A stretch of 12,835 nucleotides of DNA from IMG/VR virus record IMGVR_UViG_2737471853_000001, positions 1 to 12,835 of that record, one strand, 5' to 3'. Positions within the stretch are counted from its first letter, which is position 1. Every line of letters begins with the position of its first letter. Origin of the DNA: a virus. Lineage: Duplodnaviria; Heunggongvirae; Uroviricota; Caudoviricetes. The notes under the pieces are model-generated. The model did not search any database and was not told the DNA's origin. It saw only the letters and a list, made by a program, of their open reading frames with translations. Both the position numbers and the translations under genes were made by a program. Positions 1-12,835 of this stretch are shown here, piece by piece.

Positions 1-290
1 ATATATGCGGTTAACGTGAAGCTCTGGTTATAGGGATTAACCCCCGCGACATATACATTTCCTCCGTTCCGGTAAGATATTACTGGCGTGGGCTGGGCGG
101 TATTTGTGGTCCTGATAAATACCATCACAGGGTAGTCAGCATTTAATGCAATATTCTGAGCAACCTGCTGCGAACTGCCATTAGCAGAGGAGTTGAAAGT
201 GTACTTGCCGTAAAGACAAAAAGGCGTTGACTGGGGCGTTACAAATGGGTTCCCGTTGTCCATTAATATCATCGCGCCAAATTCGGCCAT
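1..290 (-). CDS. Hypothetical protein, 5' part only (N-terminal 96 aa; runs off the window start). Second small ORF downstream of J.
   Basis: ATG at 288-290 overlaps the TAA stop of the preceding ORF (TAATG on minus strand). My hand translation of the minus strand gives MAEFGAMILMDNGNPFVTPQSTPFCLYGKYTF... with no in-frame stop down to position 1. Not in the ORF track because it is truncated. No family recognised. Confidence 0.45.
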   Translation of the reverse strand, partial: MAEFGAMILMDNGNPFVTPQSTPFCLYGKYTFNSSANGSSQQVAQNIALNADYPVMVFIRTTNTAQPTPVISYRNGGNVYVAGVNPYNQSFTLTAY

Positions 291-592
291 TATGCTTTCT
301 CCATGAAAACGACCACTTCACACTTTGAGGCCGGATAATTACCCAGACCTACAGAAGATGCAGCGCTTACGGTTATTGTGCTCCCTGACGCGACAATGCG
401 CCGCCCTACGCTGTTACCTCCTTCATCAAGTGAAAGAACAAAACCAACTTTCATTCCTGAGGGCACCGTAAAAGACCAGCTGCCGGAGGTTTGCCCGGCA
501 GCCAGCTGTATTCGCCCAACGACGGAAACGGGTTTGATGCCATAGTTGTTGGGTTTTCCTGAAGCATCCCAGGTCTGTATTCCATAAGCCAT
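290..592 (-). CDS. Hypothetical 100-aa protein immediately downstream of J (possible tail-tip accessory protein)
   Basis: ORF track 290..592. Its ATG lies 1 nt after the J stop (TGA-A-ATG). No signal peptide or transmembrane segment evident; G/S/V-rich, looks beta-rich. Function unknown. Confidence 0.55.
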   Translation of the reverse strand: MAYGIQTWDASGKPNNYGIKPVSVVGRIQLAAGQTSGSWSFTVPSGMKVGFVLSLDEGGNSVGRRIVASGSTITVSAASSVGLGNYPASKCEVVVFMEKA

Positions 593-593
593 T

Positions 594-3500
594 TCAGAAT
601 ACTCCCGTTAATCGGCCAACCTGCACCCTAAGAACATTACTGCCATCTTTGACGCTGATCGTCTGATTTGTCAGTTTCATGGCTCCCTCACCAGCAGTCG
701 AACCGTAGTTCTCAAACGTCCCCCCTTTATCAAGCTTCCAGCCAGCAGAACCAGCAACATAATTGTTCGACTGGATAAAATTACCAATCTTTGCGTTGCT
801 GATAGTGCCGTCCTGAATGAGGGTGTCACGGATGAACACCTGCCCGTTCTGGATAACAAACGGCAGAGTCACGGTCCCTCCAGCCTGGGTCATAACCGCG
901 AAGCGGTCTGCCAGGAAGAGCACCTGCGACTGCATTCCCGCTGGCGTATTCTGAACACCAATCCCCATTCCTGCCGCGTACTGGTTGCCATTGGAATCAA
1001 CAGCTACCTTGATGCTGTACATCGCATTCAGGTTATTATTGATGTCGGCTGATACCTGGCTGTTCTGGATAATAGCCGCAGACTGACCATTTACTGTGAC
1101 CTTGAGCGAGTTAATTTGCGTAGCTGATACTTGAGTGAAATCAGCAAGCGTCTTAGACAGATCGGTAACATTCGCCGTGTTTCCACCGGCGCTGGAATCC
1201 AGGGTGCGCAGAGACTCAGCGACAGCTTTACTGGCGTCGGCCATCACATTGTCTACTCGATCGATACTGGCTTTGTTATCTCCATACTGGACGCTCAGGA
1301 GGTTGCGCTGGTTAACCTGCGCGAGCGTACTGGTGATCAGCGCGATAGCATTGTTCTGAATACCGCCGCTGGCCTTATCAGTTTGTGCACCCAGCTCTTC
1401 CAGGCGTGATGCCATTGAGGAATCGAGGTCCGTGACAACCTGGCTAAGGTCAGTGATTGATGCTGTATTCTGAGCACCTACAGCAGCTGCTGAATCAGCT
1501 TTGTCAGATGCGGCCTGAGTGGCAGCCGTCAACTGGCTTACAGCAGAAGCGCGCGCTTCAGTTTCCGTTGCTAAAGCCTGGCGAACATCAGTAATTCCGG
1601 CTTCATTCTGCGCAGTTTTTGCCTCAAGGCGAGTAACATCCGTGACGCGCGCTTCCGTCTCAGTGGCGATCACCTCCCGGAGCTGTTCGAATGTCGCAGA
1701 GTTAGCGCCCTGTTGGGCTGTCTGGCGCACGATAACATCGGCAATAGCCAGGGCGTTCCCAATGATTGCTTCTGCTGTCTGCTTATTCGAACCTACTGCT
1801 GCAGCCAGACCATCGGCGTTCTCCTTAATCGCATCAGAAAGTTCGGCCAGTTTCTCGCTACTTTCTACGGCACTCTCAATCAGATCCTTGAATACCTCAG
1901 AATCTTTAATCTCCTCCAGGATCACACTGGAGACATCAGAAACATCTATACTTGCCTGCCCACGAACCCAGCCGGTATAACCTGATTCGTTGCCGCTGCG
2001 GTCCACCAGCTGCGCGCGGTACCAGAAAATCTGCCCAGCCTTAAGGCCCATCTGCTGATATTTGCGCTGCGGGTAAGGCACATCGGCCAGCAGCATCGCA
2101 TCGTCTTCGGTACCGGTCAGACTGTACTGAATTTCCGTCTTCAGCGTGTCGTCGGTATTCGCCGGGAATCCCCAATTCAGCTCGATACCGAATACCACGT
2201 TTTCAGAAGCGATAAAGCCAACCGGCTTCGGTGGATTGCCCACTTTACCCGTCAGCGTTTTCTCTTCTGAGTAGCCCCATCCAGATGAAATTTCTGCGGC
2301 ATTGATTGCGCGCACGCGCACCAGGTAGCGCCCGGCATAAATCCCCGGGACATCGAATGACGTGGTGGAGCTGCGCGGCACGTTAACCCAGTTCCCGTCG
2401 TTGCGGCGCCATTGTGCTTCATAGGCGATAGCGTTCTGCGCCTGGTCCCAGCTCACGCGCATTGTTTCGACGCTGATATTTTGCTGAACCACGGAAAACG
2501 AGCTGATCACGATATTCGCAGGCGGCGACTGGTTACCAGGCGGGATCACGCTCACCGGCCGTTGGTCAATGATGGCTCCGGTATCGATACGGGCATATTT
2601 ATCCGGGTCGTGCCATGCGCCGGTGATTGAGAAAGTGCCATCCCCGTTATCGGAAACGCTGACAACTCGATACTGCTGCGCGTAGAGCTCGTCAGATTCA
2701 ACCACCCAAACAGCTTCGGCCTGTGGCGTCTCACTGTATGCCGTGGTGACTGTGACTGATTCCCCGTTCACGGCATGAATGGTCCTGCTCTGCGACGCTC
2801 CGGAGGGAAGGTTGAGAATAAGGCGATCACCTGGTGCTGCATCAGCTACGCGGTCAAGTTTGATAACGCGACCGTTAACGGCGCTGATGCGGCCGCCCAT
2901 AACCTTTCCGGAAAGCAGCTCGTCTGCCACGGCGATGATGTAGCCAGGCTGCGGAATGTTTCCGTCCAGCCCGACATCAAACGAAACAACGCGATCCTTG
3001 TTATTAGTGAGAATACCCCAGCGCCCCTTTCGGTTCGCCTCTGACTGCCTGGTGCAGCCGATGGCTGTCATTTCCAGCTGATTGAAGCCGTATCGCGCCA
3101 CCAGCGCCTGCTCAAATACCGGTTCCATCGCGTCGGCATAAGCGTTACCCGGGTCTGACCATGAAACCAGCGCTGTGGTGTAGCGGCTTTTCGTGGTGCT
3201 GCTCGAATAGGTGAAGCGACCGCCAACAACGTTAGCGCGCGTATAGCTGTAATCAACATCGCGCGGCATGTCAGCCAGGGCCACAATCTGATCCCCGCCC
3301 CAGTAGGTCATGCCACGGAAGATAGCGGCAAAATCACGCAGGACTGTGTAGGCGTCGTTCCGGTCCTGAATGTACACGTTGCAGGTATAACGTGGTTCTG
3401 TACCGTTGCCCCCTTTGCCGTCTGGTACCATCTGATCACAATACTGAGCAACCTGATAAAGCGTCCATTTATCAATATTCTCAGCGGTCAAACGGTGCCC

Positions 3501-4391
3501 AAGGCCGAACCGGTCAGAAACAACCAGGTCGTAAAAAATCCACGCAGGGTTATCCGTCCATGCCCACTTAAACGCACCGGTCCATGTACCGCTATAAGTG
3601 CGGGTTTCAGGGTCGTAGGTATCTGGAACGCGGATAACGCGGCCGCGCGGTTCGCATGAAATTTGAGGAATAGAGCCGTTGAACTGGCTTGAGTCGAATT
3701 CGACGTAGAGCAGCGCGGTGTTCGGGTAGCGCAGTTTGGCGTCAATCACCTCGGTGAAGCTCTGCAGCATCATCGTGTCGCCGATCTTCGCGCTGTTGGC
3801 GTCAGAGGTAATCTTACGCAGACGTATTGTCCAGGTGCTGCCAGCCTGCGGTAAATCGATACGGTGGCTGCGCTCATAACCTGAGGTCGTTTTACCGGTC
3901 ACGCTGGTATTGAGTACCGTCTGCCATGTGCCGCCGTCCGTCTGTAGGTCAATCGCATAATTGACCGAGTAACCCACCAGATCGCCGTCGTCTTCCTGTT
4001 TGAAAAGCGAGGGCCATTTAAGACGCAGGCGAACTGCTGAAAGCTGCGTATTGGTAAACGTGCGCGTCCAGGCTGTGGCACTTGATACCTCAGTTCCTAC
4101 GCTGATCTCGTTTTCGGTACCGGGAATACCCTGAATATATTTTTGCGCCTGAGTTCCCGCGCGAAACTCCCACGTTACCCCGCTGAAGTTTTGGGAGCCG
4201 TCAGCATTCTCCAGCGCTGTTCCGTCCAGGTAGATATCTTTGCCGGTGAGCTGCCCTGCAAACTCACCTTCCCCAAGCGCAACGAGGATTTTTGCCTTCG
4301 CTACAGATTGCAGATCATCAGGCTGTTCGGTAGGAGTTCGGGAACTTGAGCTGCCGCCCTTGCGGCCTTTTAACACTTTATCTGTAGCCAT
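594..4391 (-). CDS. J: Host specificity protein J (tail tip / central tail fibre), 1265 aa
   Basis: Sits after I as in lambda. N-terminal two-thirds resembles lambda gpJ as I recall it (e.g. the ...ISGVT..FRAG... and ...RITCN.Y... stretches, plus fibronectin-III-like region). The C-terminal ~400 aa is a coiled-coil with TETEAR repeats followed by a distal domain, and differs from lambda J. Confidence 0.93.
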   Translation of the reverse strand: MATDKVLKGRKGGSSSSRTPTEQPDDLQSVAKAKILVALGEGEFAGQLTGKDIYLDGTALENADGSQNFSGVTWEFRAGTQAQKYIQGIPGTENEISVGTEVSSATAWTRTFTNTQLSAVRLRLKWPSLFKQEDDGDLVGYSVNYAIDLQTDGGTWQTVLNTSVTGKTTSGYERSHRIDLPQAGSTWTIRLRKITSDANSAKIGDTMMLQSFTEVIDAKLRYPNTALLYVEFDSSQFNGSIPQISCEPRGRVIRVPDTYDPETRTYSGTWTGAFKWAWTDNPAWIFYDLVVSDRFGLGHRLTAENIDKWTLYQVAQYCDQMVPDGKGGNGTEPRYTCNVYIQDRNDAYTVLRDFAAIFRGMTYWGGDQIVALADMPRDVDYSYTRANVVGGRFTYSSSTTKSRYTTALVSWSDPGNAYADAMEPVFEQALVARYGFNQLEMTAIGCTRQSEANRKGRWGILTNNKDRVVSFDVGLDGNIPQPGYIIAVADELLSGKVMGGRISAVNGRVIKLDRVADAAPGDRLILNLPSGASQSRTIHAVNGESVTVTTAYSETPQAEAVWVVESDELYAQQYRVVSVSDNGDGTFSITGAWHDPDKYARIDTGAIIDQRPVSVIPPGNQSPPANIVISSFSVVQQNISVETMRVSWDQAQNAIAYEAQWRRNDGNWVNVPRSSTTSFDVPGIYAGRYLVRVRAINAAEISSGWGYSEEKTLTGKVGNPPKPVGFIASENVVFGIELNWGFPANTDDTLKTEIQYSLTGTEDDAMLLADVPYPQRKYQQMGLKAGQIFWYRAQLVDRSGNESGYTGWVRGQASIDVSDVSSVILEEIKDSEVFKDLIESAVESSEKLAELSDAIKENADGLAAAVGSNKQTAEAIIGNALAIADVIVRQTAQQGANSATFEQLREVIATETEARVTDVTRLEAKTAQNEAGITDVRQALATETEARASAVSQLTAATQAASDKADSAAAVGAQNTASITDLSQVVTDLDSSMASRLEELGAQTDKASGGIQNNAIALITSTLAQVNQRNLLSVQYGDNKASIDRVDNVMADASKAVAESLRTLDSSAGGNTANVTDLSKTLADFTQVSATQINSLKVTVNGQSAAIIQNSQVSADINNNLNAMYSIKVAVDSNGNQYAAGMGIGVQNTPAGMQSQVLFLADRFAVMTQAGGTVTLPFVIQNGQVFIRDTLIQDGTISNAKIGNFIQSNNYVAGSAGWKLDKGGTFENYGSTAGEGAMKLTNQTISVKDGSNVLRVQVGRLTGVF

Positions 4392-4402
4392 ATTGCGCCC
4401 AT

Positions 4403-4433
4403 AAAAAAGCCACCCGAAGGTGGCCAGAAAAAA
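4403..4433 (-). terminator. Intergenic GC stem-loop with flanking U-tracts between I and J (terminator-like or mRNA-stabilising hairpin)
   Basis: Minus strand reads TTTTTT-ctg-GCCACC-ttcg-GGTGGC-TTTTTT-atgggcgcaat-ATG(J). Stem 4409-4414 / 4419-4424 with UUCG-type loop; U-run follows at 4402-4408. Confidence 0.4.
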
Positions 4434-4443
4434 GGTTAGTTAT

Positions 4444-5049
4444 CTACTGCTGATCTTCGACATAAATTCCGGCAGAAATAATCGCTCCGCCGATTCGACG
4501 CTTACCATAAAGCAGAGGCACTGGGTAGCCTTGCGCTGCAGTGTTGGTTACCCCGCCAAACGCATACGATGCACGGTTATCTGCGCTTTGTTTACTGGCT
4601 ATGCCTGATGGCTGCGGTGAAAGCAGCTGAATAACCCCACCGAGGACCAACGAGGCACCAGTGGCAGCAGCAAACCACGTCAATCCACCAGCAGCGAAAG
4701 CAGCGCCAATACCGCCAGAAACAAAGACTGCAGCAGTTATCAAAACTGCTCCTAATATCGTCTGAAAAAGACCAGCGCGTTTACTACCGATAATTACAGG
4801 CATAATCCTTACTACATCGCCTTCAGAGGGAAAACCCATCTCATCTGCGGCAATATTTCTTTTCCCTTTGAACACCGCGAAAGTTAATCCGCGACGTTTA
4901 CTGCTGATCATGAAACTTTCGAAACCGGGCAATGTTTTACTTAAAGCAATAGCAGCTTCACCAGTTCGCGCTATCAGTCGTTGATGGGTTCTACCGAATG
5001 TCTTTCCTAACACTCCGCCGAGCTGAATTGTTGTCATTACTTCTTTCAT
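4444..5049 (-). CDS. I: Tail assembly protein I
   Basis: 201 aa, located between K and J as in lambda; hydrophobic Gly/Ala-rich C-terminal half typical of gpI. The true start could be the internal Met (MTTIQ...) 12 nt downstream. Confidence 0.85.
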   Translation of the reverse strand: MKEVMTTIQLGGVLGKTFGRTHQRLIARTGEAAIALSKTLPGFESFMISSKRRGLTFAVFKGKRNIAADEMGFPSEGDVVRIMPVIIGSKRAGLFQTILGAVLITAAVFVSGGIGAAFAAGGLTWFAAATGASLVLGGVIQLLSPQPSGIASKQSADNRASYAFGGVTNTAAQGYPVPLLYGKRRIGGAIISAGIYVEDQQ

Positions 5050-5060
5050 ATTCTCACCAT

Positions 5061-5080
5061 AAAAAACCCGCCGAAGCGGG
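5061..5080 (-). terminator. Rho-independent terminator candidate downstream of the lipoprotein gene
   Basis: Minus strand reads CCCGC-ttcg-GCGGG followed by TTTTTT (stem 5067-5071 / 5076-5080, U-run 5061-5066), 12 nt after the lipoprotein stop and 11 nt before the I start codon. Confidence 0.55.
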
Positions 5081-5091
5081 TTAAGTCTTGG

Positions 5092-5433
5092 TTAGATACA
5101 GCGTTCTATTACTTTAATCCGGCTGTTTATTCGATAAGCAAATAGCCCACCTTGATGACGGAATTCAATCTTGGTAATTCCGCCGTCCGATATTAAATCA
5201 ACCATCTCAAGTTGAGATTGTGTAAATACAGTTTTACCACCGTCATAAGGCTGAATAAAAACGCTTCCATATTTTTGGCTTTCTTCTTGCCAGCCAGAGA
5301 GTATGCATTCAGCTACTGCGTCAATTTGTTTCTTCGATTGAAAAGTATTTGACGCTGGTTCCTTCCGGAGATCCTGCATACTCGAACAACCAGCCATGAT
5401 TATCAAAGAAAGTGTCAATAATGTTTTTTTCAT
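5092..5433 (-). CDS. Predicted outer-membrane lipoprotein (113 aa precursor) inserted between K and I; candidate moron
   Basis: The ORF track entry 5092..5601 overlaps the 3' end of K; the plausible start is the internal ATG at 5431-5433 (MKKTLLTLSLIIMAGC-SS...). This gives a signal peptide with lipobox IMAG-C and Ser at +2. AAAGGGG lies 9 nt upstream as a ribosome-binding site. Region is AT-rich relative to neighbours. Followed by a terminator. Confidence 0.7.
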   Translation of the reverse strand: MKKTLLTLSLIIMAGCSSMQDLRKEPASNTFQSKKQIDAVAECILSGWQEESQKYGSVFIQPYDGGKTVFTQSQLEMVDLISDGGITKIEFRHQGGLFAYRINSRIKVIERCI

Positions 5434-5462
5434 ATCCCTATCCCCTTTGGTTTTGCAAAAGG

Positions 5463-6173
5463 TTAGCACAGAGATTTGTAACGTAGAATCTTCATCGTCC
5501 TTTCCTGCCAGTAGCCACCATACGGCACGCGCTGGCTCAGATGTCCGTACAGGTGGTGCAGCAGCATATTTCCCTCCAGCAGAATTCCCGCGTGATTCCA
5601 CTTATCGGCCTGGACCTGCATGATCACCATATCACCGGGTTTCGGTGGTCCGTCGAATTCACGGAATCCGCATTCATACCAGCAATCCTGATAAAAATTG
5701 TCCGGATAGGCGTTTTCCCACCAGGGATAATCCACCCGGTAATCGTGGAGCTCGATACCATGCGTTTGCCGGAAATAGCTCATTACCAGCCCCCAGCAGT
5801 CGAAGTGTCCAAGCACAAACGGACGCTCCAGCAGTGGCAGTTCTCCGCGCGGCTGGATGGTGCGTAAATCCCCCTCCGGCCAGCTCACAATATGCCAGGG
5901 TAAAAGCGTTGCGTCGCATTGCGCTTTATCCAGTTCGCTCGGCTGCGTAGTGGCGTCAGGGTGACTGTGAACGATGGCGATCACCGTACCCCAGTCCTCA
6001 GCAGCTGCATAGTCTTCTGGCGACAGGTGAAAATGTTCTGTCGGCTCGGTAGCGAGGTTACTACATGGAAAATATTTCTCTACCCGGCTCTTTTGCGCCA
6101 CCACGCCGCAACACTCACTAGGATATTCAGCTGCAGCATGCGCCATAATCGCATCGATGGTTTTCTGACGCAT
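5463..6173 (-). CDS. K: Tail assembly protein K (JAMM/MPN metalloprotease-like domain plus NlpC/P60 domain)
   Basis: 236 aa. JAMM motif H-S-H-x7-S-x2-D visible in ...AIVHSHPDATTQPSELD...; NlpC/P60-like Cys/His in ...FDCWGLV... and ...HAGILL.... Position between L and I matches lambda. Confidence 0.9.
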   Translation of the reverse strand: MRQKTIDAIMAHAAAEYPSECCGVVAQKSRVEKYFPCSNLATEPTEHFHLSPEDYAAAEDWGTVIAIVHSHPDATTQPSELDKAQCDATLLPWHIVSWPEGDLRTIQPRGELPLLERPFVLGHFDCWGLVMSYFRQTHGIELHDYRVDYPWWENAYPDNFYQDCWYECGFREFDGPPKPGDMVIMQVQADKWNHAGILLEGNMLLHHLYGHLSQRVPYGGYWQERTMKILRYKSLC

Positions 6174-6174
6174 A

Positions 6175-6930
6175 TCAACTCCTGATCAGCGACGTACCAG
6201 GGAAGCCACCAAACGAGAGTTCGTTATTTTCGCCGAATCGGAGTTTGCAGGCCGTCAGCGTGCCATTGCATTCATCCAGCGACGGATCGCTTACCGGGTT
6301 GTTGTTTTTATCGAAATAGCGGGTGCCGGCATAGTCGCAGCCGTCGCCGGTACGATATTTATTCCGGATGCACCATGTGCACAGAGAATGAAGCTGGCGG
6401 GTAGGTATCATCAGCCCCTGCAGATCCATAGGGCTGGATAGTGTGAACTCAACAACTTCATTGGTTTCACTGCTCTTTGCATCGATGTAGAAAACCTTCA
6501 GCTTCTCCTGGGTCGGATCGGCTGTCGGATTGCCTCCGGTGAAGTTTCTCGCATCGAGATACTTACCAAGGGTGTCATGTATCGTCACCTTCGCCTGCAG
6601 CATATCGTCGTAAGCCAGGCAAAGCGCGGTGATCGAACTGTCGAGGTTAGCAACCGAAAGTTTTGGCTGGGCACTACTTCCCGAGGTTGAAGCTTCGATC
6701 CCCTCAATCTGGCATGGCCACGCTTTATACTCCTCACCCTGCCACCAGATAGATTTTGCTGGCAGTTTATTTTCATCACCGCCAGCAGCGATAATTTCGG
6801 CTTCAGAGTGCGCAAGACTGTAGCTGTGAAATCGCAGCACATCACCTGTACCAAATGCCGTGCCATCCACTTCGAAAAGCCTGACCACATCGCCAGGTTC
6901 GAGCTTCTGAAAATCTGCGTTAAGACTCAT
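6175..6930 (-). CDS. L: Minor tail protein L
   Basis: 251 aa, between M and K. C-terminal Cys cluster (C-x2-C ... C ... C ... C) as in the iron-sulfur-binding region of lambda gpL. Start overlaps the M stop (ATGA). Confidence 0.88.
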   Translation of the reverse strand: MSLNADFQKLEPGDVVRLFEVDGTAFGTGDVLRFHSYSLAHSEAEIIAAGGDENKLPAKSIWWQGEEYKAWPCQIEGIEASTSGSSAQPKLSVANLDSSITALCLAYDDMLQAKVTIHDTLGKYLDARNFTGGNPTADPTQEKLKVFYIDAKSSETNEVVEFTLSSPMDLQGLMIPTRQLHSLCTWCIRNKYRTGDGCDYAGTRYFDKNNNPVSDPSLDECNGTLTACKLRFGENNELSFGGFPGTSLIRS

Positions 6931-7268
6931 GGTTTGTAGGCCTGTTCAAAAGTTGCAGAAAGATTAAATAACCCGGCACCAAGTGGCGTTGGTGTGTAGG
7001 TGTCGCAGCGGTAAAGCCCGAGAGGCTCAAGCGGCGGGCGCCACTGAAACGCCGTCACGCCCGCATGGCGATCGAGAAAGTCTTTAATCGCCCCGATATA
7101 CGTTTCGGTACCGGTAAACTGGAGAGTCCATTTCTGCGAGCGGGGATTAATCCCGTCGCAGGAAACCTGCTGATATCCGTCACCGAACTGCGCGGTGCGC
7201 CGTCGGAATGTCACTTCCTGCTCCGCGTTCGGGCGCGGACACCAGCTGAATGTTTCTATAGCCATCAC
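6927..7268 (-). CDS. M: Minor tail protein M
   Basis: 113 aa directly after the tape measure gene; contains the FGDGY.Q motif shared with lambda gpM. Start overlaps the H stop (ATGA). Confidence 0.88.
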   Translation of the reverse strand: MMAIETFSWCPRPNAEQEVTFRRRTAQFGDGYQQVSCDGINPRSQKWTLQFTGTETYIGAIKDFLDRHAGVTAFQWRPPLEPLGLYRCDTYTPTPLGAGLFNLSATFEQAYKP

Positions 7269-9685
7269 CGCCCTCCTTTTGCCAGATTCCAGACCGCGCC
7301 ACCGGGTGAAAGGTCACGGCCTATCAACTCTCGGTATCGCCGATCAACAAAACTACCTACCTCCCGCCCGAATTGCTCATATCCACCGCTAGCCTGAGTC
7401 TGGGTATTCCCATTGCCATCAATCTGAATACTGACCTGAGGAGCACTACTACCACCCGGTGTTAAGCCTGAGATTCCCATAGCACGCACGCCCAGCGATC
7501 CGTCAGCGGCGCGGGTCAGTGGCATAATAGCCTCCGGCCCAGCCTCCCCCATCAATCCGGCCCCTTTGGCAAAGGCAAACAGTGTTGGAGAGCTGACGAC
7601 AGAGTTACTGTACTGACTGAGATCGGCAGAAGAGTAAACGCCGCCTTTGGCGTTGAATTGCAGGCTCGCCCCGTAGGACTGAATCGCAGTACCGCTGCTG
7701 GCGGAAGACGATGCGGCACCACCGAACAATGAGCCTATCGAGCTGGCTGCATTGGCGATCATCATGTTAACCATCACCTGTTCGATGATTTTCAGAACAC
7801 TGACACCCCAGTCTTTCCAGCTCGCTTTATTGCCGTTGAGCATGTCGACGATATTGCTGCTGATACCGGAAAGCGCGCTTTTCATAGCGTCCGCCGCCAG
7901 CGTCGCATAGTTAGTTGAATCATCTACCCAGTCAGCGAGACCGTCTCTGGCGCCAGTCACCCAGTCAGACTGCAGCGCATCAATTTGACTGTAATAATCC
8001 TCCTGGATGCCCAGCCTCTCAGCTTGCGCATCCTTTAATGCCTGGGTTTCGCGGTCATAAACTGTCTGGCTGATATCTCCTGACTGATACTGCTTTTGCA
8101 GATCGCGCAGCTGATCGAGATAACTGCGCTCTATACTCAGCCTTTCCCTCAGCCTTTCACGCTGCTTGTCACCGAGTCCGGCCCCCTGAATATCCACGCC
8201 CAAATCTGCACGTGCATTCTCGTTCTGCTCCTGCAGATTTGCCACGAACGCCGCTACCTTCGCGTTTTCTTCATTAGCTTTTTTGACGGCATTAAGGCGA
8301 TCAACTTCCTGAGCCAGAGACGCAAGTCGTTTCTTCTGGGTTTCGTTAAGCCCCTGCAACTTGCCGTCAGCTATATCGAACTGCAGTTTTTGCTGCTCGG
8401 TCACCACAGCAGTTTTTTTGCCGGTGGTATCGATCAGCTCAATCTGACGCATGTAACTGCGCTCAGCGCTTTTAAACGCTGAATCCAGTTTCTGACCAGA
8501 GGTATTTTTTTGCGGCTTACCGTTTGTTTCCCCGGCGCCAAGGGTATAGTTTGTTTTGACTGGCTCGGGCAGTTTTATTTCCGGTAGAGTAGATTGGGAG
8601 TTTCTCAAAAAGGCCAGTCGCCTCTGGAGCTCAGCCCTTTCGGCCTCCTTACTGGATACGTCCATACCTATTCTGTTGAAACTCGCCAGTATGCCTTTAT
8701 CATCGAGATCTGCATTCAGGTTCTTGATGCGCCGTTCAATTTCTGGAATGGAGGCATTCAGGCCGACCGAACTCCCACCTTTGTACTGGTCTATCAGCTT
8801 TCCGGCCTCGGCTCCTACCCTTACCAGCCAGGTGGCAAGGTCCACTACCCCACCAACCAGATCAGTCAGACCCTGAATAACAGCCGGGTCTTTAAATACA
8901 TCCCCCATATCTCCAATAGACTTCTGGAGCCCACTCAAATCTACGCTGGCGAGCCCTGCAGCAAGTTCAATTTTGACGCCGTTGACCTGCGTCTCCATAT
9001 CCTCAAACAGGGCGTTGACTCTGACCAGCTTTTCAATATCTGCGTCATCGGGCGCCACACCAAACTTCTTCGCGGCATCCATATACTGACGCAGCTTTTC
9101 ACTGCCATTGTCCAGGAGCGGCAGCATCTTTGACAGGTCATTACCCAGACTCTCCAGGATGGTAGTCTTCTCGGCGTTGGACTTAACTTTCTCCAGTGCG
9201 TCGCTGATAGCCAGGAGTTGCTTGTCGGGAGATTCTCCGGCCAGTTTCTTAGCCGACAAACCCAGAGCGTCCAGCGCACCGACCGCCTCACCAGATTTAT
9301 TAAGAACGGCATCACCGATTTTGTCTCCGACATCTTTAAAGATATCGGCCATCTGATCGCCGGAAACACCTGCTTTTTCTGCAGCATATTGCCAGGCTAA
9401 CAGGGACTGCGTGGACATGTTAAGTGACTTTGCCCAGCGGTCTGATTCGGTAATCTGACGTGAAGTGGTTTTGAGCAGGTTATACCCCGCCACTCCGGCT
9501 CCGATGGCTGCAGCCCCGACTGCTGTTGCGAATCCGGTCATGGCAGCTGCAGCGGCAGCGGCATCCTCCTTTACCTGCTTACGCCATTTTTGTGAAGCTC
9601 GCTCAGCCTGCGAGAGGCCTGAGACAAAACCGCCCACTTTGGCAATCAGGTCGATCGTCAGCGTGCCCAGTGATTTGGAAGCCAT
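7265..9685 (-). CDS. H: Tail tape measure protein (lambda gpH-like), 806 aa
   Basis: Large alpha-helical protein with Ala/Gly-rich hydrophobic segments, immediately downstream of the G/G-T chaperone genes. GGAGAG ribosome-binding site 7 nt upstream of the ATG. Confidence 0.9.
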   Translation of the reverse strand: MASKSLGTLTIDLIAKVGGFVSGLSQAERASQKWRKQVKEDAAAAAAAMTGFATAVGAAAIGAGVAGYNLLKTTSRQITESDRWAKSLNMSTQSLLAWQYAAEKAGVSGDQMADIFKDVGDKIGDAVLNKSGEAVGALDALGLSAKKLAGESPDKQLLAISDALEKVKSNAEKTTILESLGNDLSKMLPLLDNGSEKLRQYMDAAKKFGVAPDDADIEKLVRVNALFEDMETQVNGVKIELAAGLASVDLSGLQKSIGDMGDVFKDPAVIQGLTDLVGGVVDLATWLVRVGAEAGKLIDQYKGGSSVGLNASIPEIERRIKNLNADLDDKGILASFNRIGMDVSSKEAERAELQRRLAFLRNSQSTLPEIKLPEPVKTNYTLGAGETNGKPQKNTSGQKLDSAFKSAERSYMRQIELIDTTGKKTAVVTEQQKLQFDIADGKLQGLNETQKKRLASLAQEVDRLNAVKKANEENAKVAAFVANLQEQNENARADLGVDIQGAGLGDKQRERLRERLSIERSYLDQLRDLQKQYQSGDISQTVYDRETQALKDAQAERLGIQEDYYSQIDALQSDWVTGARDGLADWVDDSTNYATLAADAMKSALSGISSNIVDMLNGNKASWKDWGVSVLKIIEQVMVNMMIANAASSIGSLFGGAASSSASSGTAIQSYGASLQFNAKGGVYSSADLSQYSNSVVSSPTLFAFAKGAGLMGEAGPEAIMPLTRAADGSLGVRAMGISGLTPGGSSAPQVSIQIDGNGNTQTQASGGYEQFGREVGSFVDRRYRELIGRDLSPGGAVWNLAKGGR

Positions 9686-9704
9686 AAACTCTCCGTTGGC
9701 GGCA

Positions 9705-10366
9705 TTATGTCCAGCTGGCTCTGGCTTCCTCTAACGAGATTGGTCCATCAGCAGCTTTGACTTTGGTAAAGTGAAGTGTGAAATCGGTCGGGTTGAATGG
9801 TGGGCGCTTGGGGTCTCTGTTAACGTTGGCTATCATGCTGCTCACCAGCCCGGCACCCCACTCAACCCGCAACATAGGGTTCAGACTCCCGTATCGTTCC
9901 CGGTACTTTGCCCAGAGTTGGGACTCTTTGAATGAGAGGACTTCCCGCGCTTCGGCGATTGTTCTGCCTCCGATTCCGTTGAGGACGAGCTCGCACCAGA
10001 ATTCGTCTTCGGCGCTGAGCTCGAAGTCTTTCCCAGATCGTTAACTTCCTGAATGGCCAGAAGCAGTGCTACCGTCAGGCCGCCATCCAGTGCACCACGT
10101 TCAGGATCTGCCTCACCAGTAATGTCAGCCGGGGTGAAGATGGGTTTACCATGTTCATCGCAGATGGATGCGGCGATACGCCCTGCCACACCATCGACCT
10201 TACCACCAAAAGCCAGCACATCGGACGTTGCTGTGTGATAACCCATCGGGCGAACATACACGGTCGCGGTGATTTTTTTATCGCCTTGCGTCCAGGTGAT
10301 TTCTTTCTCAACCGGGCGACCGGTAAACGCGCCGGACTCCTTGAGTGCATCAAGTGTTAATTTCAT
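9705..10366 (-). CDS. G-T: Tail assembly chaperone G-T fusion produced by programmed -1 ribosomal frameshift (about 220 aa)
   Basis: After a -1 slip on G-GGA-AAG (10028-10034) the new frame is open for 107 codons (GKDFELSAEDEFWCELVLNGIGGRTIAEAREV...EEARASWT) and stops at TAA 9705-9707, 19 nt before the H start. Hand translation from the sequence. Confidence 0.72.
9881..10366 (-). CDS. G: Tail assembly chaperone G (zero-frame product, 161 aa)
   Basis: Sits between major tail protein and tape measure. AGGA ribosome-binding site 8 nt upstream. Contains the slippery heptamer at codons 112-113. The zero frame continues 48 codons past the slip site as a Ser/Thr-rich low-complexity tail. Confidence 0.8.
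   Translation of the reverse strand: MKLTLDALKESGAFTGRPVEKEITWTQGDKKITATVYVRPMGYHTATSDVLAFGGKVDGVAGRIAASICDEHGKPIFTPADITGEADPERGALDGGLTVALLLAIQEVNDLGKTSSSAPKTNSGASSSSTESEAEQSPKRGKSSHSKSPNSGQSTGNDTGV
10028..10034 (-). other. Programmed -1 frameshift slippery heptamer GGGAAAG
   Basis: Plus strand CTTTCCC at 10028-10034 is GGGAAAG on the minus strand, in register xxG-GGA-AAG with G codons 112-113. This is the same heptamer used for the lambda G/G-T shift. Confidence 0.7.
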
Positions 10367-10384
10367 TATTAATCCTGATTAATA

Positions 10385-10400
10385 AGGGCGTTGCCGCCCT
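10385..10400 (-). promoter_or_regulatory. Perfect 6-bp GC stem-loop in the major-tail / G intergenic region
   Basis: Minus strand reads AGGGCG-gcaa-CGCCCT, 4 nt after the major tail stop codon. The following U-tract is weak (TATTAAT), so this is more likely a 3' stabilising hairpin or attenuator than a strong terminator. Confidence 0.35.
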
Positions 10401-10404
10401 GATT

Positions 10405-10905
10405 TTATGGGGTCACGACTTTTGGCACCCATACAGCAGAGCCGGAGCGCTGGATAGATGCAGAAGTAGAAACAACCGTGTTTGCTGCAAAATCAAACGG
10501 GAAGTCGGACACATAGCCTTTGAATACGAACCATGTGCGGCTATCAGGTAGCACCAGGCCATCGACTGCACCGGATGCACCATTTTCAGCCGCAGTTGGC
10601 GATGCGGTTCCGTCTGACCATCCAATCGCGAAGGTCAGGTCCTGATCCTCTTCGTCGTCCGAAATGGACAGGTTGTAGAGCATGATGTGGCTGGTATTTT
10701 TAGGATCAGCGTTAAGCGTCAGTGATGCTGTGCCAGGCGTTCGAAGACCACGCTTATAGCTGCGATCAAAGCGTTCAGAAAGACAGGTGTCTTCAATCTG
10801 GTCAGCCGGATTGCTGCCGGGTGAAAATGCAGTGATACATTCAACTTCGCTCACCTCGCCTTTTACGAGCACAAAGAGCTGCGTACCTTGCGTCAATACA
10901 GACAT
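10405..10905 (-). CDS. Major tail (tube) protein, 166 aa
   Basis: Called by position: directly upstream of the G/G-T chaperone pair and downstream of the DUF3168-like gene. GGAGA ribosome-binding site 6 nt upstream; hairpins flank it on both sides. Family not recognised with certainty from sequence. Confidence 0.7.
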
Positions 10906-10931
10906 TGTTATCTCCGGTCATAAAAAAACCG

Positions 10932-10953
10932 GCTCAAGGCCGGTTGTTGAATA
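10932..10953 (-). terminator. Terminator-like hairpin plus U7 upstream of the major tail gene
   Basis: Minus strand reads CCGGC-cttga-GCCGG-TTTTTTT (stem 10939-10943 / 10949-10953, U-run 10932-10938), lying between the DUF3168 gene stop and the major tail start. Confidence 0.45.
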
Positions 10954-10959
10954 ATACGT

Positions 10960-11325
10960 TTATCGAGTGACTATCCAGTCAACATCGAATGAGTAGCGAT
11001 AGCGCTTTGTTTCGGGGTCTCTTTCCTGTCCGCCCCAGCGCGTGATATGCGCGTGCGGCTCAATGGCATCCCGCAGCGCAGTAGCCACGGCAATCACTTC
11101 ATCCACGGTGTCGGCATATGCATCCACCTGCAGCGTGAAAAAGTCTGCGTCAGGGCGCTGGGCAATGTAGTTCTCTGGAGAACCGGTGATGTTCTGCCAG
11201 ACCACATAGGGATAGACCACGTTGTCGTCCTGAATTCCGAAAGGATAAATTCTTACCGGATTGCTTCCGAGTAAGTCAGTGACTTCAGGACTCGACGCGC
11301 AAACAGAAAAAATAGGGGCAATCAT
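10960..11325 (-). CDS. DUF3168-like tail completion / tail terminator-type protein, 121 aa
   Basis: Matches the DUF3168 pattern as I recall it: ...RIYPFG..., ...PYVVWQNITG..., ...LQVDAYADT..., ...ATALRDA.... Start overlaps the preceding gene's stop (ATGA). Confidence 0.78.
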   Translation of the reverse strand: MIAPIFSVCASSPEVTDLLGSNPVRIYPFGIQDDNVVYPYVVWQNITGSPENYIAQRPDADFFTLQVDAYADTVDEVIAVATALRDAIEPHAHITRWGGQERDPETKRYRYSFDVDWIVTR

Positions 11326-11870
11326 GCAGTGGTTCCTTTCTTCGTGGCCAGCCTGATAGCGCGATCAATAGCCTTTCCCATTTCCGTAGAAAAAACATTA
11401 ATCACGTCATTATCTACGCCGTTCATTGCAGGTCGGAGGATAGGCCGCGCTGATGTGTGCTCAGTACCAAACTCAAGAAAACGCCAGTACCAGGTATCTC
11501 CTCCTGGATTGCCTTTATCTCCTGAGGTTTTGTATGTTTTACCCGCTCTGCCTTTTCTGACGTTTGCCTTTGTATTTGCATACTGCCTAGCACCGCCCAT
11601 TACCCCGACACGGAATGCCAGATCACCTGTCCTGCGGAATTGCTTGCTGCTGAAGCTGGCGACGATATTTTTGTGGATTGCTTCTTTAGTCAGAGGATCA
11701 TCAACTCGTGACGCGTTGCTTCTGGCCCGATCCCTTATAATGTTTGCCGCCTTACGCAATGCAAACCGACCGGCTTTATTACGGGTGACTTCTGATACGG
11801 CCTCCATTTTCCCAAGAAGTGATTCAAGCCCGGTAAGACTTACCTCAACACTATCAGCCATCATTAACAC
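11322..11870 (-). CDS. HK97 gp10-family head-tail joining / tail component protein
   Basis: Motifs LTGLESLLGKMEA, ALRKAANIIRDRAR and WRFLEFGTEHTSARPILRPAM fit the HK97 gp10 family. The track start (MLMMADS...) overlaps the head closure gene by 17 nt; the true start may be the Met at 11859-11861 (MADSVEV...). Confidence 0.75.
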   Translation of the reverse strand: MLMMADSVEVSLTGLESLLGKMEAVSEVTRNKAGRFALRKAANIIRDRARSNASRVDDPLTKEAIHKNIVASFSSKQFRRTGDLAFRVGVMGGARQYANTKANVRKGRAGKTYKTSGDKGNPGGDTWYWRFLEFGTEHTSARPILRPAMNGVDNDVINVFSTEMGKAIDRAIRLATKKGTTA

Positions 11871-12186
11871 CCTCAGAACAGGGAAGCGTCAGGTATTCAC
11901 GTCCGCTTTTTGGATCGGGCAGAACACCATGGATGTTATACACCGCACCACGAAACAAGATGCGATGTTTTCTGGTAACTCCGGCACGGTAGCGAATAAC
12001 AATACGGGTGGTTATTTCACCCTGAGAAGCCTGCGCAGCAATAAATTCACGCGCTGACAATGGTGAAACTTCGGCCCGGACAGTCGCAACATCTCGCCAG
12101 GTATTAATTACGGCTCCCGTTGTCGGGTTCTGCACTTTTACTGGCTCCTGCAGAGTAATCCTGTGGCGCAATTTCCCGGCCTGCAT
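11854..12186 (-). CDS. Head closure protein (head-tail adaptor, Phage_H_T_join / gpFII-like family)
   Basis: 110 aa, MQAGKLRHRITLQ...WRDVATVRAEV.PLSAREF..AQ......RIVIRYR.....HRILF.G.VYNI.GV.PDP... matches the family pattern. Start is 1 nt after the preceding ORF's stop. Confidence 0.88.
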   Translation of the reverse strand: MQAGKLRHRITLQEPVKVQNPTTGAVINTWRDVATVRAEVSPLSAREFIAAQASQGEITTRIVIRYRAGVTRKHRILFRGAVYNIHGVLPDPKSGREYLTLPCSEGVNDG

Positions 12187-12187
12187 G

Positions 12188-12385
12188 TTACCCCCTGGGT
12201 TTACCGCTCAGATAGGTTTGTTGCTCTGCAGTTTCATCTAGTTCACCAGCCAGCGACTGGATAATGACATCGCAAAGCGCCATATTTGATTCAGCCAGAC
12301 GGCTTATCGCTTCCGTCTGCTCCCTCTGCGCTGTGATTTGTTCCCGTATCACTGCTATCAGTTCGTTTACCAGTTGCTCGTTCAT
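12188..12385 (-). CDS. Small hypothetical protein (65 aa, predicted helical) between connector and head closure genes
   Basis: ORF track; its stop is 1 nt before the head closure ATG (TAA-C-ATG) and it fills an otherwise empty gap in a tightly packed operon. No clear Shine-Dalgarno sequence and no recognised family. Confidence 0.4.
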   Translation of the reverse strand: MNEQLVNELIAVIREQITAQREQTEAISRLAESNMALCDVIIQSLAGELDETAEQQTYLSGKPRG

Positions 12386-12448
12386 AAGCTATTTTTGCCC
12401 ACTTTTTTATCCACTCGCTCCGTTGCGCGCATCCTGAACAGGCCATAT

Positions 12449-12775
12449 TTACACCCCGTAAATTCGGTATGGCTGAAGCAGGGCTTCAACTGCAAACGGG
12501 ACCTCTGCAACGGTCTGACCGACGGCCACTGATTCTCTGTTGGCATACCAGTGACCTATCAGCAATAACATGGCCGCTTTAACATCATCATTCAGTAGAA
12601 TCGGGTCCGGGTCGTCTGCGTAGCCAGGGGAGCTTTGGTTTTCATAGAGCGTTCGCCTTGTCCATGTCTGGACGTAACGCGCCGCCGCACCGGTGTATAA
12701 CGTCAGCAGGGCATCGTCTCCGGAAAAATCGGTATCAATGCGGCAGTGCTGTTTCACCACATCAAGGTCGACCAT
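12449..12775 (-). CDS. gp6-like head-tail connector protein
   Basis: 108 aa; ...VKQHCRID.DFSGDDALLTLYTGAAARYV...AMLLLIGHWYANRE...LLQPYR... fits the Phage_connect_1 pattern. Its ATG overlaps the stop of the upstream gene (TAATG). Confidence 0.85.
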   Translation of the reverse strand: MVDLDVVKQHCRIDTDFSGDDALLTLYTGAAARYVQTWTRRTLYENQSSPGYADDPDPILLNDDVKAAMLLLIGHWYANRESVAVGQTVAEVPFAVEALLQPYRIYGV

Positions 12776-12835
12776 TATTTTTTCGCCTTCTTGTCAGCTT
12801 TTACTTCCGGCTGTACCTGCTGCTGTTCCTGCTGC
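12775..12835 (-). CDS. 3' end of an upstream head-region gene (C-terminus ...QQEQQQVQPEVKADKKAKK*)
   Basis: Hand translation of the minus strand gives an open frame entering from beyond the window end and stopping at TAA 12775-12777, overlapping the connector ATG. Identity (capsid, decoration or other) cannot be determined from 19 residues. Confidence 0.35.
   Translation of the reverse strand, partial: QQEQQQVQPEVKADKKAKK

Follow-up and report, generated by a model that had tools for sequence, protein, structure and literature searches.

We analyzed a stretch of phage DNA of 12,835 nucleotides (here called the window; positions 1 to 12,835 of the IMG/VR virus record IMGVR_UViG_2737471853_000001, class Caudoviricetes), and within it a gene for a predicted lipoprotein of 113 residues that lies between the tail-tip assembly genes K and I. 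Judged by sequence comparison, the family to which this gene belongs, PHROG 914, appears to be a coherent lipoprotein family with a conserved pair of Cys residues and a fixed address between K and I across siphophages of Beta- and Gammaproteobacteria, which is new, as are the putative conserved promoter–gene–terminator layout of the locus and its apparent positional equivalence with proteins of the YebO/gp15 type. The most likely role of the product, which we propose tentatively, would be superinfection exclusion at the outer membrane. Already known were the deposited protein as such (HK140_019 and its mEpX2 counterpart), the slot as occupied by gp20 of HK022, and lipoprotein morons as a kind.

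The lipoprotein gene and its cassette

The window holds an HK97-like (Hendrixvirinae) tail operon in which lambda-type tail-tip genes flank the lipoprotein gene. The gene and its closely associated elements, all on the minus strand, are the following.

5092..5433, minus strand: lipoprotein coding sequence, 113 aa plus a TAA stop codon; the product begins with MKKTLLTLSLIIMAG directly followed by CSSMQDLRKE, and ends with KVIERCI
5388..5386, minus strand: codon of the predicted lipid-attachment residue Cys16, preceded by a signal peptide (residues 1–15) and followed by Ser at +2; the mature domain is 98 aa, with the conserved Cys43 and Cys112
5441..5445, minus strand: Shine–Dalgarno sequence GGGGA, as read from the sequence, 7 nt ahead of the ATG at 5433
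5460..5468, minus strand: candidate extended −10 element TGCTAACCT (TG-n-TAnnnT), 26 nt upstream of the ATG and overlapping the K stop codon TAA at 5465..5463
5061..5082, minus strand: intrinsic terminator with a 7-bp G+C-rich stem, a TTCG loop and a T6 run
5073..5484, minus strand: exchanged cassette relative to HK022, HK97 and mEp235, 412 bp, 39.6% G+C

Substrates of signal peptidase II were recognized by a positively charged N-region, a hydrophobic core and a lipobox [LVIM][ASTVI][GAS]C about 15–25 residues from the start, and all of these are present in the predicted window protein. Its translation gives the N-region MKK, the core TLLTLSLII and then MAG/C, with IMAG/C as the lipobox; Pfam LPAM_1 matched the protein only weakly. 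The Ser at +2 agrees with the Lol sorting rule for Enterobacterales (no Asp at +2). Purine-rich GGAG or GGGG blocks occupy the site of the Shine–Dalgarno sequence in the homologous loci. The terminator stem, at 5082..5065 (AACCCGCTTCGGCGGGTT), begins nine nt past the lipoprotein stop codon, and its T6 run extends to 5061, 11 nt from the start codon of I. Folding of this element gave a free energy (dG) of −18.3 kcal/mol with z = −3.6, and none of 200 shuffled sequences was as stable. An initial annotation of this DNA had proposed a 113-residue lipoprotein with Ser at +2 between K and I, followed by a stem–loop and U6 terminator, and these results bear it out on both points.

The lipoprotein coding sequence had a G+C content of 38.6%, to be compared with 53.9% in K, 48.3% in I, 51.7% in L, 54.3% in J and 52.2% in the entire window. 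This dip is real and amounts to about 10–15 points. The about 41% G+C that had initially been counted over 5101–5400 is correct, while the about 60% given for K came from an unrepresentative sample of 60 nt, such that the dip of about 19 points thereby suggested was too large.

The closest relatives were the HK97-like phages HK140 and mEpX2, both 97% identical to the window across 2.5 kb, which encode a 100% identical protein at the same K–I position (HK140_019 and the mEpX2 equivalent). Both carry the annotation ‘hypothetical protein’, and in the record of HK140 a resemblance to a “putative phage-related lipoprotein” from Pseudomonas putida is mentioned. The lipoprotein gene itself is the same in the window and in these two phages, and the differences lie elsewhere (length and C-terminus of J). 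The segment was found in only three of 5426 complete E. coli genomes.

HK97, HK022, mEp235 and other relatives have no lipoprotein gene at the K–I junction, despite 91–97% identity in K and 97–99% at the start of J. Homology in blastn with HK022, HK97 and mEp235 ends at 5485, 22 nt within the 3′ end of K, and restarts at 5072, within the terminator. The cassette between these borders runs from the final seven codons of K through the promoter motif and the lipoprotein gene into the terminator, of which it includes the 5′ half, and because the homology breaks inside the 3′ end of K, the C-termini of the K proteins differ (...KILRYKSLC versus ...KILRHQNFI). At this junction HK022 has gp20 (L003 2057..2281), annotated “moron gene product” in its record, and the same gene was found there in mEp235 and eleven further HK97-like coliphages (13 including HK022); the corresponding open reading frame (ORF) of HK97 is truncated to 32 aa (L002 2375..2473). 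The gp20 protein, a member of the YebO family (PF13974, expectation value (E) 2e-12), has 74 aa and one transmembrane segment and is 43% identical to gp15 of HK97, the founding moron and an experimentally demonstrated superinfection-exclusion protein (PMC3594210). In both types of cassette the terminators are alike in shape, with differing stems, and are placed right before the ribosome-binding site of I. The proposal in the initial annotation that the gene is inserted moron cargo agrees well with this comparison, in which the relatives hold different cargo between K and I.

The K–I junction is the documented moron slot of HK022 gp20 and HK97 gene 20 (Juhala et al. 2000; AF069308, AF069529). 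Morons are reportedly characterized by extra DNA, absent at the same place from otherwise close relatives, with its own promoter and terminator, deviant base composition and expression from the repressed prophage (Juhala et al. 2000; Cumby et al. 2012). The lipoprotein gene is missing from close relatives at the same position, has its own terminator and differs from its neighbours in G+C content, and a reading of it as a moron fits. A stricter rule, by which each HK97-like phage would have exactly one of gp15, gp20 and the lipoprotein, was tried and rejected, as seven phages have gp15 and gp20 together.

The PHROG 914 family and its genomic address

The lipoprotein matched phrog_914 over its full length (E 7.1e-37, residues 1–113 against positions 1–118 of 118 in the profile), a family to which PHROG assigns no function. 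This was the only family matched in the profile searches, in line with the initial annotation, in which the family had not been recognized. Searches of Pfam, NCBIfam and PADLOC gave no significant match for the lipoprotein or for 44 family members, only sub-threshold and signal-peptide-driven ones; in PADLOC-DB 2.0, which covers anti-phage defence, no family matched at E ≤ 10, and a sequence search of the PDB with the lipoprotein gave no match. The Cor profile phrog_1119 reached E 0.2, aligned to residues 1–23 only and not beyond the signal peptide. No functional study was found in the literature on HK140, mEpX2, the mEp phages and lipoproteins between gpK and gpI. When 1.84 billion representative proteins were searched exhaustively with HMMER, only 91 representatives came out at E ≤ 1e-3, nearly all of them lipoproteins of about 110–125 aa.

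In an alignment of 44 sequences, with 24–93% identity to the window protein, only the lipid-attached Cys, C43 and C112 were invariant, and R23, W48 and D79 were nearly so. A lipobox was recognizable in most of 115 listed family sequences, none of 114 members had Asp at +2, and in 110 of the 114 the conserved Arg followed the lipid Cys at a distance of 6–8 residues. An AlphaFold2 model, with a predicted local distance difference test (pLDDT) score of 86, consisted of a beta strand, an alpha helix, four beta strands and a final alpha helix; a short helix, beginning two residues past Cys16, comes before them. In this model the long helix holds C43 and the C-terminal helix, in its last turn, C112, and the two Cys residues probably form a disulfide. 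Fold searches returned generic two-layer alpha/beta relatives only (KA1, TBP-like, DUF302, Francisella Flpp3 and the N-terminal domain of BamC). Foldseek found nothing better than E 1e-3 in the PDB, and one uncharacterized lipoprotein (E 6.6e-4) in BFVD.

For the genomic address we examined 96 homologous loci with 25–100% identity, locating the tail genes in each; two further loci (L101 and L105) were added later. The lipoprotein lay between K and I in 92 of the 96, from genomes of Kosakonia, Serratia, Photorhabdus, Ewingella and Yersinia to Klebsiella phages, a phage of P. protegens and a phage of Bordetella (25–29% identity). Prophages of P. aeruginosa also carry it between K and I (33% identity) and are widespread, with 279 collection blocks. 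In two more of the 96, or four loci with the later additions, the gene instead occupies the slot of gp15, which separates the tail chaperone gene from that of the tape measure; this subgroup includes L018, which is one of the 96, together with L101 and L105, loci of the L083 type not being counted. As the family is found in the gp15 slot as well as at K–I, the lipoprotein and gp15/gp20 families are positional alternates at these two places of the tail operon.

Gene I directly follows the lipoprotein terminator in nearly all homologous loci, with the exception of L064, where a transposase of the IS200/IS605 type lies between the lipoprotein and I. Additional cargo otherwise goes between K and the lipoprotein, and includes KilA-N-type genes, an Arc/Mnt-like gene, a DUF6694 lipoprotein of 268 aa and genes read from the opposite strand. 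The K–I junction is a general insertion hot spot; coordinates of such cargo are 4462..4971 in L064, 3370..3879 in L050, 1691..3886 in L055 and 2678..3484 in L100.

This address also bears on the possibility that the gene is a host-fitness or virulence moron, which like Bor would provide serum resistance, outer-membrane stability or adhesion. Lambda Bor/Iss is, like the predicted window product, an outer-membrane lipoprotein of about 100 aa encoded by a prophage moron. The Pfam family Lambda_Bor gave no match for the lipoprotein or any of the 44 members, nor was there a match to Iss or to other envelope families, and it speaks against such a role that the gene is confined to tail operons across hosts as unlike as soil Pseudomonas, the insect pathogen Photorhabdus, Bordetella and gut E. 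coli, with exclusion proteins of the gp15 type as its positional alternates. We therefore consider a host-fitness function unlikely.

Yet another explanation would be that the lipoprotein acts like an immunity protein, neutralizing a cell-wall peptidase in the periplasm, either a K-type amidase or one from a type VI secretion system (T6SS). The order of an NlpC/P60 protein followed by a small lipoprotein indeed resembles that of effector–immunity pairs, and a homologue in Edaphovirga cremea (L010) lies beside tssB, tssC and hcp. NF045617, a putative periplasmic T6SS immunity lipoprotein of NCBIfam, matched the window protein at 13 bits against a cutoff of 43 bits (E 0.08), and six of the 44 members at E < 1 (best 0.008). 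These matches are nevertheless far under the cutoff and driven by the signal peptide, the T6SS link comes from a single locus, and K has no signal peptide. Moreover, one subgroup of the family lies far from K in the chaperone–tape measure slot, and inserted cargo splits the lipoprotein from K and not from I. K is not known to be a component of the lambda virion. Altogether, an inhibitor of this kind seems very improbable.

Two kinds of homologue were seen outside phages. That of E. cremea (L010 1861..6342) is 45% identical, lies in AT-rich sequence just downstream of the three T6SS genes and is accompanied by two small membrane proteins. On metagenome contigs (L102 4357..5375, L103 and L104), a chromosomal homologue with 27% identity is found among housekeeping genes (pfk, adk and a Mur ligase), where it shares a 4-nt overlap with the stop codon of a gene for a 215-aa polytopic membrane protein without a Pfam match, to which it is translationally coupled. 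This membrane protein is a possible cellular partner of the lipoprotein family.

Expression, evolution and proposed role

The layout of the locus was compared among 21 lineages, defined as clusters at 70% amino acid identity. In 13 of the 21, the motif TGnTAnnnT was present 24–32 nt ahead of the start codon, with an expected background of 0.0083 per 16-nt interval. At least eight variants occurred (TGCTAACCT, TGCTATCAT, TGTTAATAT, TGCTAATAT, TGCTACCCT, TGGTACCCT, TGCTATGAT and TGATATTCT), all keeping the TG and the A2 and T6 positions, and the motif was still present where other cargo parts K from the lipoprotein (L050, L053 and L055). This conservation points to a putative weak promoter upstream of the lipoprotein, working without a −35 element. 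A hairpin with a T-run followed the homologue in 17 of the 21 lineages. A conserved terminator right before essential tail genes can be understood only if transcription of the lipoprotein gene takes place at times when those genes must be silent, and a promoter combined with a terminator before essential late genes is what would be expected of a gene transcribed in the repressed prophage.

We propose that these elements make up a self-contained moron cassette in the K–I hot spot, with an extended −10 promoter, a Shine–Dalgarno sequence, the lipoprotein ORF and an intrinsic terminator. The weak promoter would, in a lysogen, drive transcription of the lipoprotein gene alone, the terminator halting RNA polymerase ahead of I and J, and in lytic growth the antiterminated late transcript would pass through the cassette. 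The product would be exported and lipidated at Cys16, and with Ser at +2 it would be carried by the Lol pathway to the inner leaflet of the outer membrane, against which its compact alpha/beta domain would be tightly held. With a helix starting two residues, and a near-invariant Arg 6–8 residues, from the lipid Cys, the domain should act directly at the periplasmic surface of this membrane. Exclusion could then follow either of two routes: an outer-membrane receptor may be hindered from the periplasmic side, as by Cor and T5 Llp, or an incoming lambda-like tail tip may be hindered while crossing the outer membrane.

The main alternative with regard to expression is a lytic-cycle accessory, a late read-through product that would mask the receptor or the outer membrane and thereby spare progeny from debris or infected cells; such protection of progeny by masking has been described as a second role of T5 Llp. 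The gene lies within the late operon and is read from the same strand, and it is strictly linked to the tail tip in Beta- and Gammaproteobacteria. Several further observations support this alternative and at the same time weigh against expression from a repressed prophage. A scan for consensus −35/−10 sigma-70 promoters found none upstream of the lipoprotein, the −10 hexamer of the window (TAACCT) is weak and has no −35 element, the −10 motif is missing in eight of the 21 lineages, and in L016 the lipoprotein start overlaps the K stop codon, implying translational coupling to the late operon. From the eight lineages without the motif and the overlap in L016, it follows that read-through expression is also likely. 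A terminator conserved in 17 of 21 lineages would, on the other hand, be counter-productive for mere co-transcription with I and J. Moreover, the −10 motif persists even with cargo between K and the lipoprotein, and nearly all of the loci belong to prophages or temperate phages, which makes a mainly lytic accessory quite unlikely. The initial annotation, having seen no convincing sigma-70 promoter, had suggested that the gene may be read through from the late operon; the first part agrees with the consensus scan, and the second is probably wrong in view of the extended −10 motif in 13 lineages.

The ratio of nonsynonymous to synonymous substitution rates (dN/dS) against close relatives was 0.10–0.31, and the lipoprotein gene is accordingly functional and under purifying selection. 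A chance ORF or a functionless, decaying remnant might have been suspected from an annotation as hypothetical only and from the rarity of the segment in complete E. coli genomes. This explanation is refuted by the selection, by full-length homologues down to 25% identity with the invariant lipobox Cys and Cys pair, and by the confident AlphaFold2 model, leaving it practically no probability.

Divergence of the lipoprotein correlated with that of K (rho 0.81), I (0.74), L (0.72) and J (0.68), and not with that of M. The lipoprotein was always the most diverged of the tip-module genes compared; identities in L005, as an example, were 85% for K, 60% for I and 38% for the lipoprotein, and in a second locus 80% for K, 81% for L, 78% for J and 40% for the lipoprotein. 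Purifying selection combined with the fastest divergence fits a protein engaged with a changing partner. The G+C content was below that of the flanks in all 21 lineages, yet it followed the level of the host (0.55 versus 0.64 in P. aeruginosa). Low G+C had initially been taken to suggest horizontal acquisition; being low in all 21 lineages, with homologues between K and I at 25–80% identity, it is instead a family trait and not evidence for recent import. The lipoprotein gene is thus an old and fast-evolving resident of the tip module that is gained, lost or swapped through recombination in the conserved flanks.

The position as an alternate of gp15 and gp20 in both slots, the linkage to tip genes, the fast divergence and the nature of the product as an envelope protein would all argue for superinfection exclusion. 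Other points weigh against it. The positional link with gp15 and gp20 is an association and not proof. Searches with the lipoprotein revealed no sequence or fold resemblance to Llp, Cor or Bor. HK140 already has Cor, encoded downstream of J, and blocking of FhuA by the lipoprotein would for that reason be redundant in this phage. A tight matching of the lipoprotein to the receptor-binding end of J was considered and is not supported, as identical lipoproteins are found alongside J proteins whose C-termini share only 71% identity. It also has to be counted on this side that we infer expression from the prophage and the exclusion phenotype, as we do lipidation and localization, from sequence.

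A more specific version of the exclusion hypothesis, to which we give little weight, is that PHROG 914 may be a new class of tail-module-linked exclusion factor, which at the periplasmic side of the outer membrane would act on the conserved tail tip or tape-measure machinery of the incoming phage and not on a particular receptor. The family would then have travelled with K, I and J since before the split between the siphophages of Beta- and Gammaproteobacteria. Such a factor would explain the fixed address among tip genes, the co-divergence, the rapid evolution and the coexistence with Cor in HK140.

The other tail genes of the window, of lambda type at the tip, are listed below.

5463..6173, minus strand: K, tail-tip assembly, upstream neighbour of the lipoprotein gene; JAB/MPN PF14464 and NlpC/P60 PF00877, E 1e-21; phrog_30
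4444..5049, minus strand: I, tail-tip assembly, downstream neighbour; phrog_32, E 6e-71
6175..6930: L; PF05100, E 2e-87
6927..7268: M
594..4391: J
7265..9685: tape-measure gene, upstream of the tip genes

The I allele of the window is only 74% identical to those of HK97, HK022 and mEp235, compared with 92–97% for K and 99% for the N-terminus of J, and the 5′ part of I is also low in G+C (about 44–49%). This I allele may travel with the lipoprotein cassette. Between I and J, right before the start of J, the minus strand at 4402..4425 forms a G+C-rich hairpin (GGCCACCTTCGGGTGGC) with a T6 run, which is the counterpart of the ‘putative terminator’ closing the gene 22/23 morons of HK97; the moron slot at this place is empty in the window and the terminator is retained. 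The slot between the chaperone (G/T) and the tape measure, home of the HK97 gp15 moron, is also empty (9685..9705, 19 nt). The J protein has 1265 aa in the window versus 1151 aa in HK140, and its last 268 aa (594..1400) are about 71% identical to J of HK140, mEpX2 and phi80 and 87% identical to that of an Enterobacter phage. Receptor specificity, and possibly the host, may hence differ from HK140 despite a nearly identical segment from K to I.

Superinfection exclusion and lysogenic conversion are functions that tail-operon morons have been proven to supply, and only a handful of such morons have been characterized (gp15, Cor, Llp, Bor and Lom). The present family is unusually well defined, with a small and confidently predicted fold, a Cys pair and a fixed address that includes the widespread prophages of P. 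aeruginosa, and with HK140 and mEpX2 cultured on E. coli K-12 the hypothesis is open to simple genetics. Exclusion at the tail tip and not at the receptor would, if true, be a new step at which prophages block entry.

Comparison with known systems

The lipoprotein gene is like HK022 gp20 and HK97 gene 20 with regard to the slot, the orientation, the terminator structure before the ribosome-binding site of I and a small envelope-targeted product. The products themselves differ, gp20 being an unrelated 74-aa YebO protein, presumably of the inner membrane, whereas that of the window is a 113-aa lipoprotein predicted to reach the outer membrane. Similarly, the gene resembles that of HK97 gp15, reportedly a superinfection-exclusion moron (Cumby et al. 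2012; reviewed in PMC3594210), in being a tail-operon moron with its own terminator that encodes a small envelope protein, and a subgroup of the family is found in the very slot of gp15; to that inner-membrane protein of the YebO family, however, it has no relationship in sequence or fold. With Cor (of phi80, N15, HK022 and HK140) and T5 Llp it shares the character of a small phage lipoprotein, predicted or known to be in the outer membrane and encoded near tail or receptor-binding genes, and Llp contains a disulfide, as predicted for the window lipoprotein. Lambda Bor, finally, likewise an outer-membrane lipoprotein encoded by a moron, differs in that bor is located in the lysis region, in its unmatched fold and in the lack of any match between Lambda_Bor and the lipoprotein described here.

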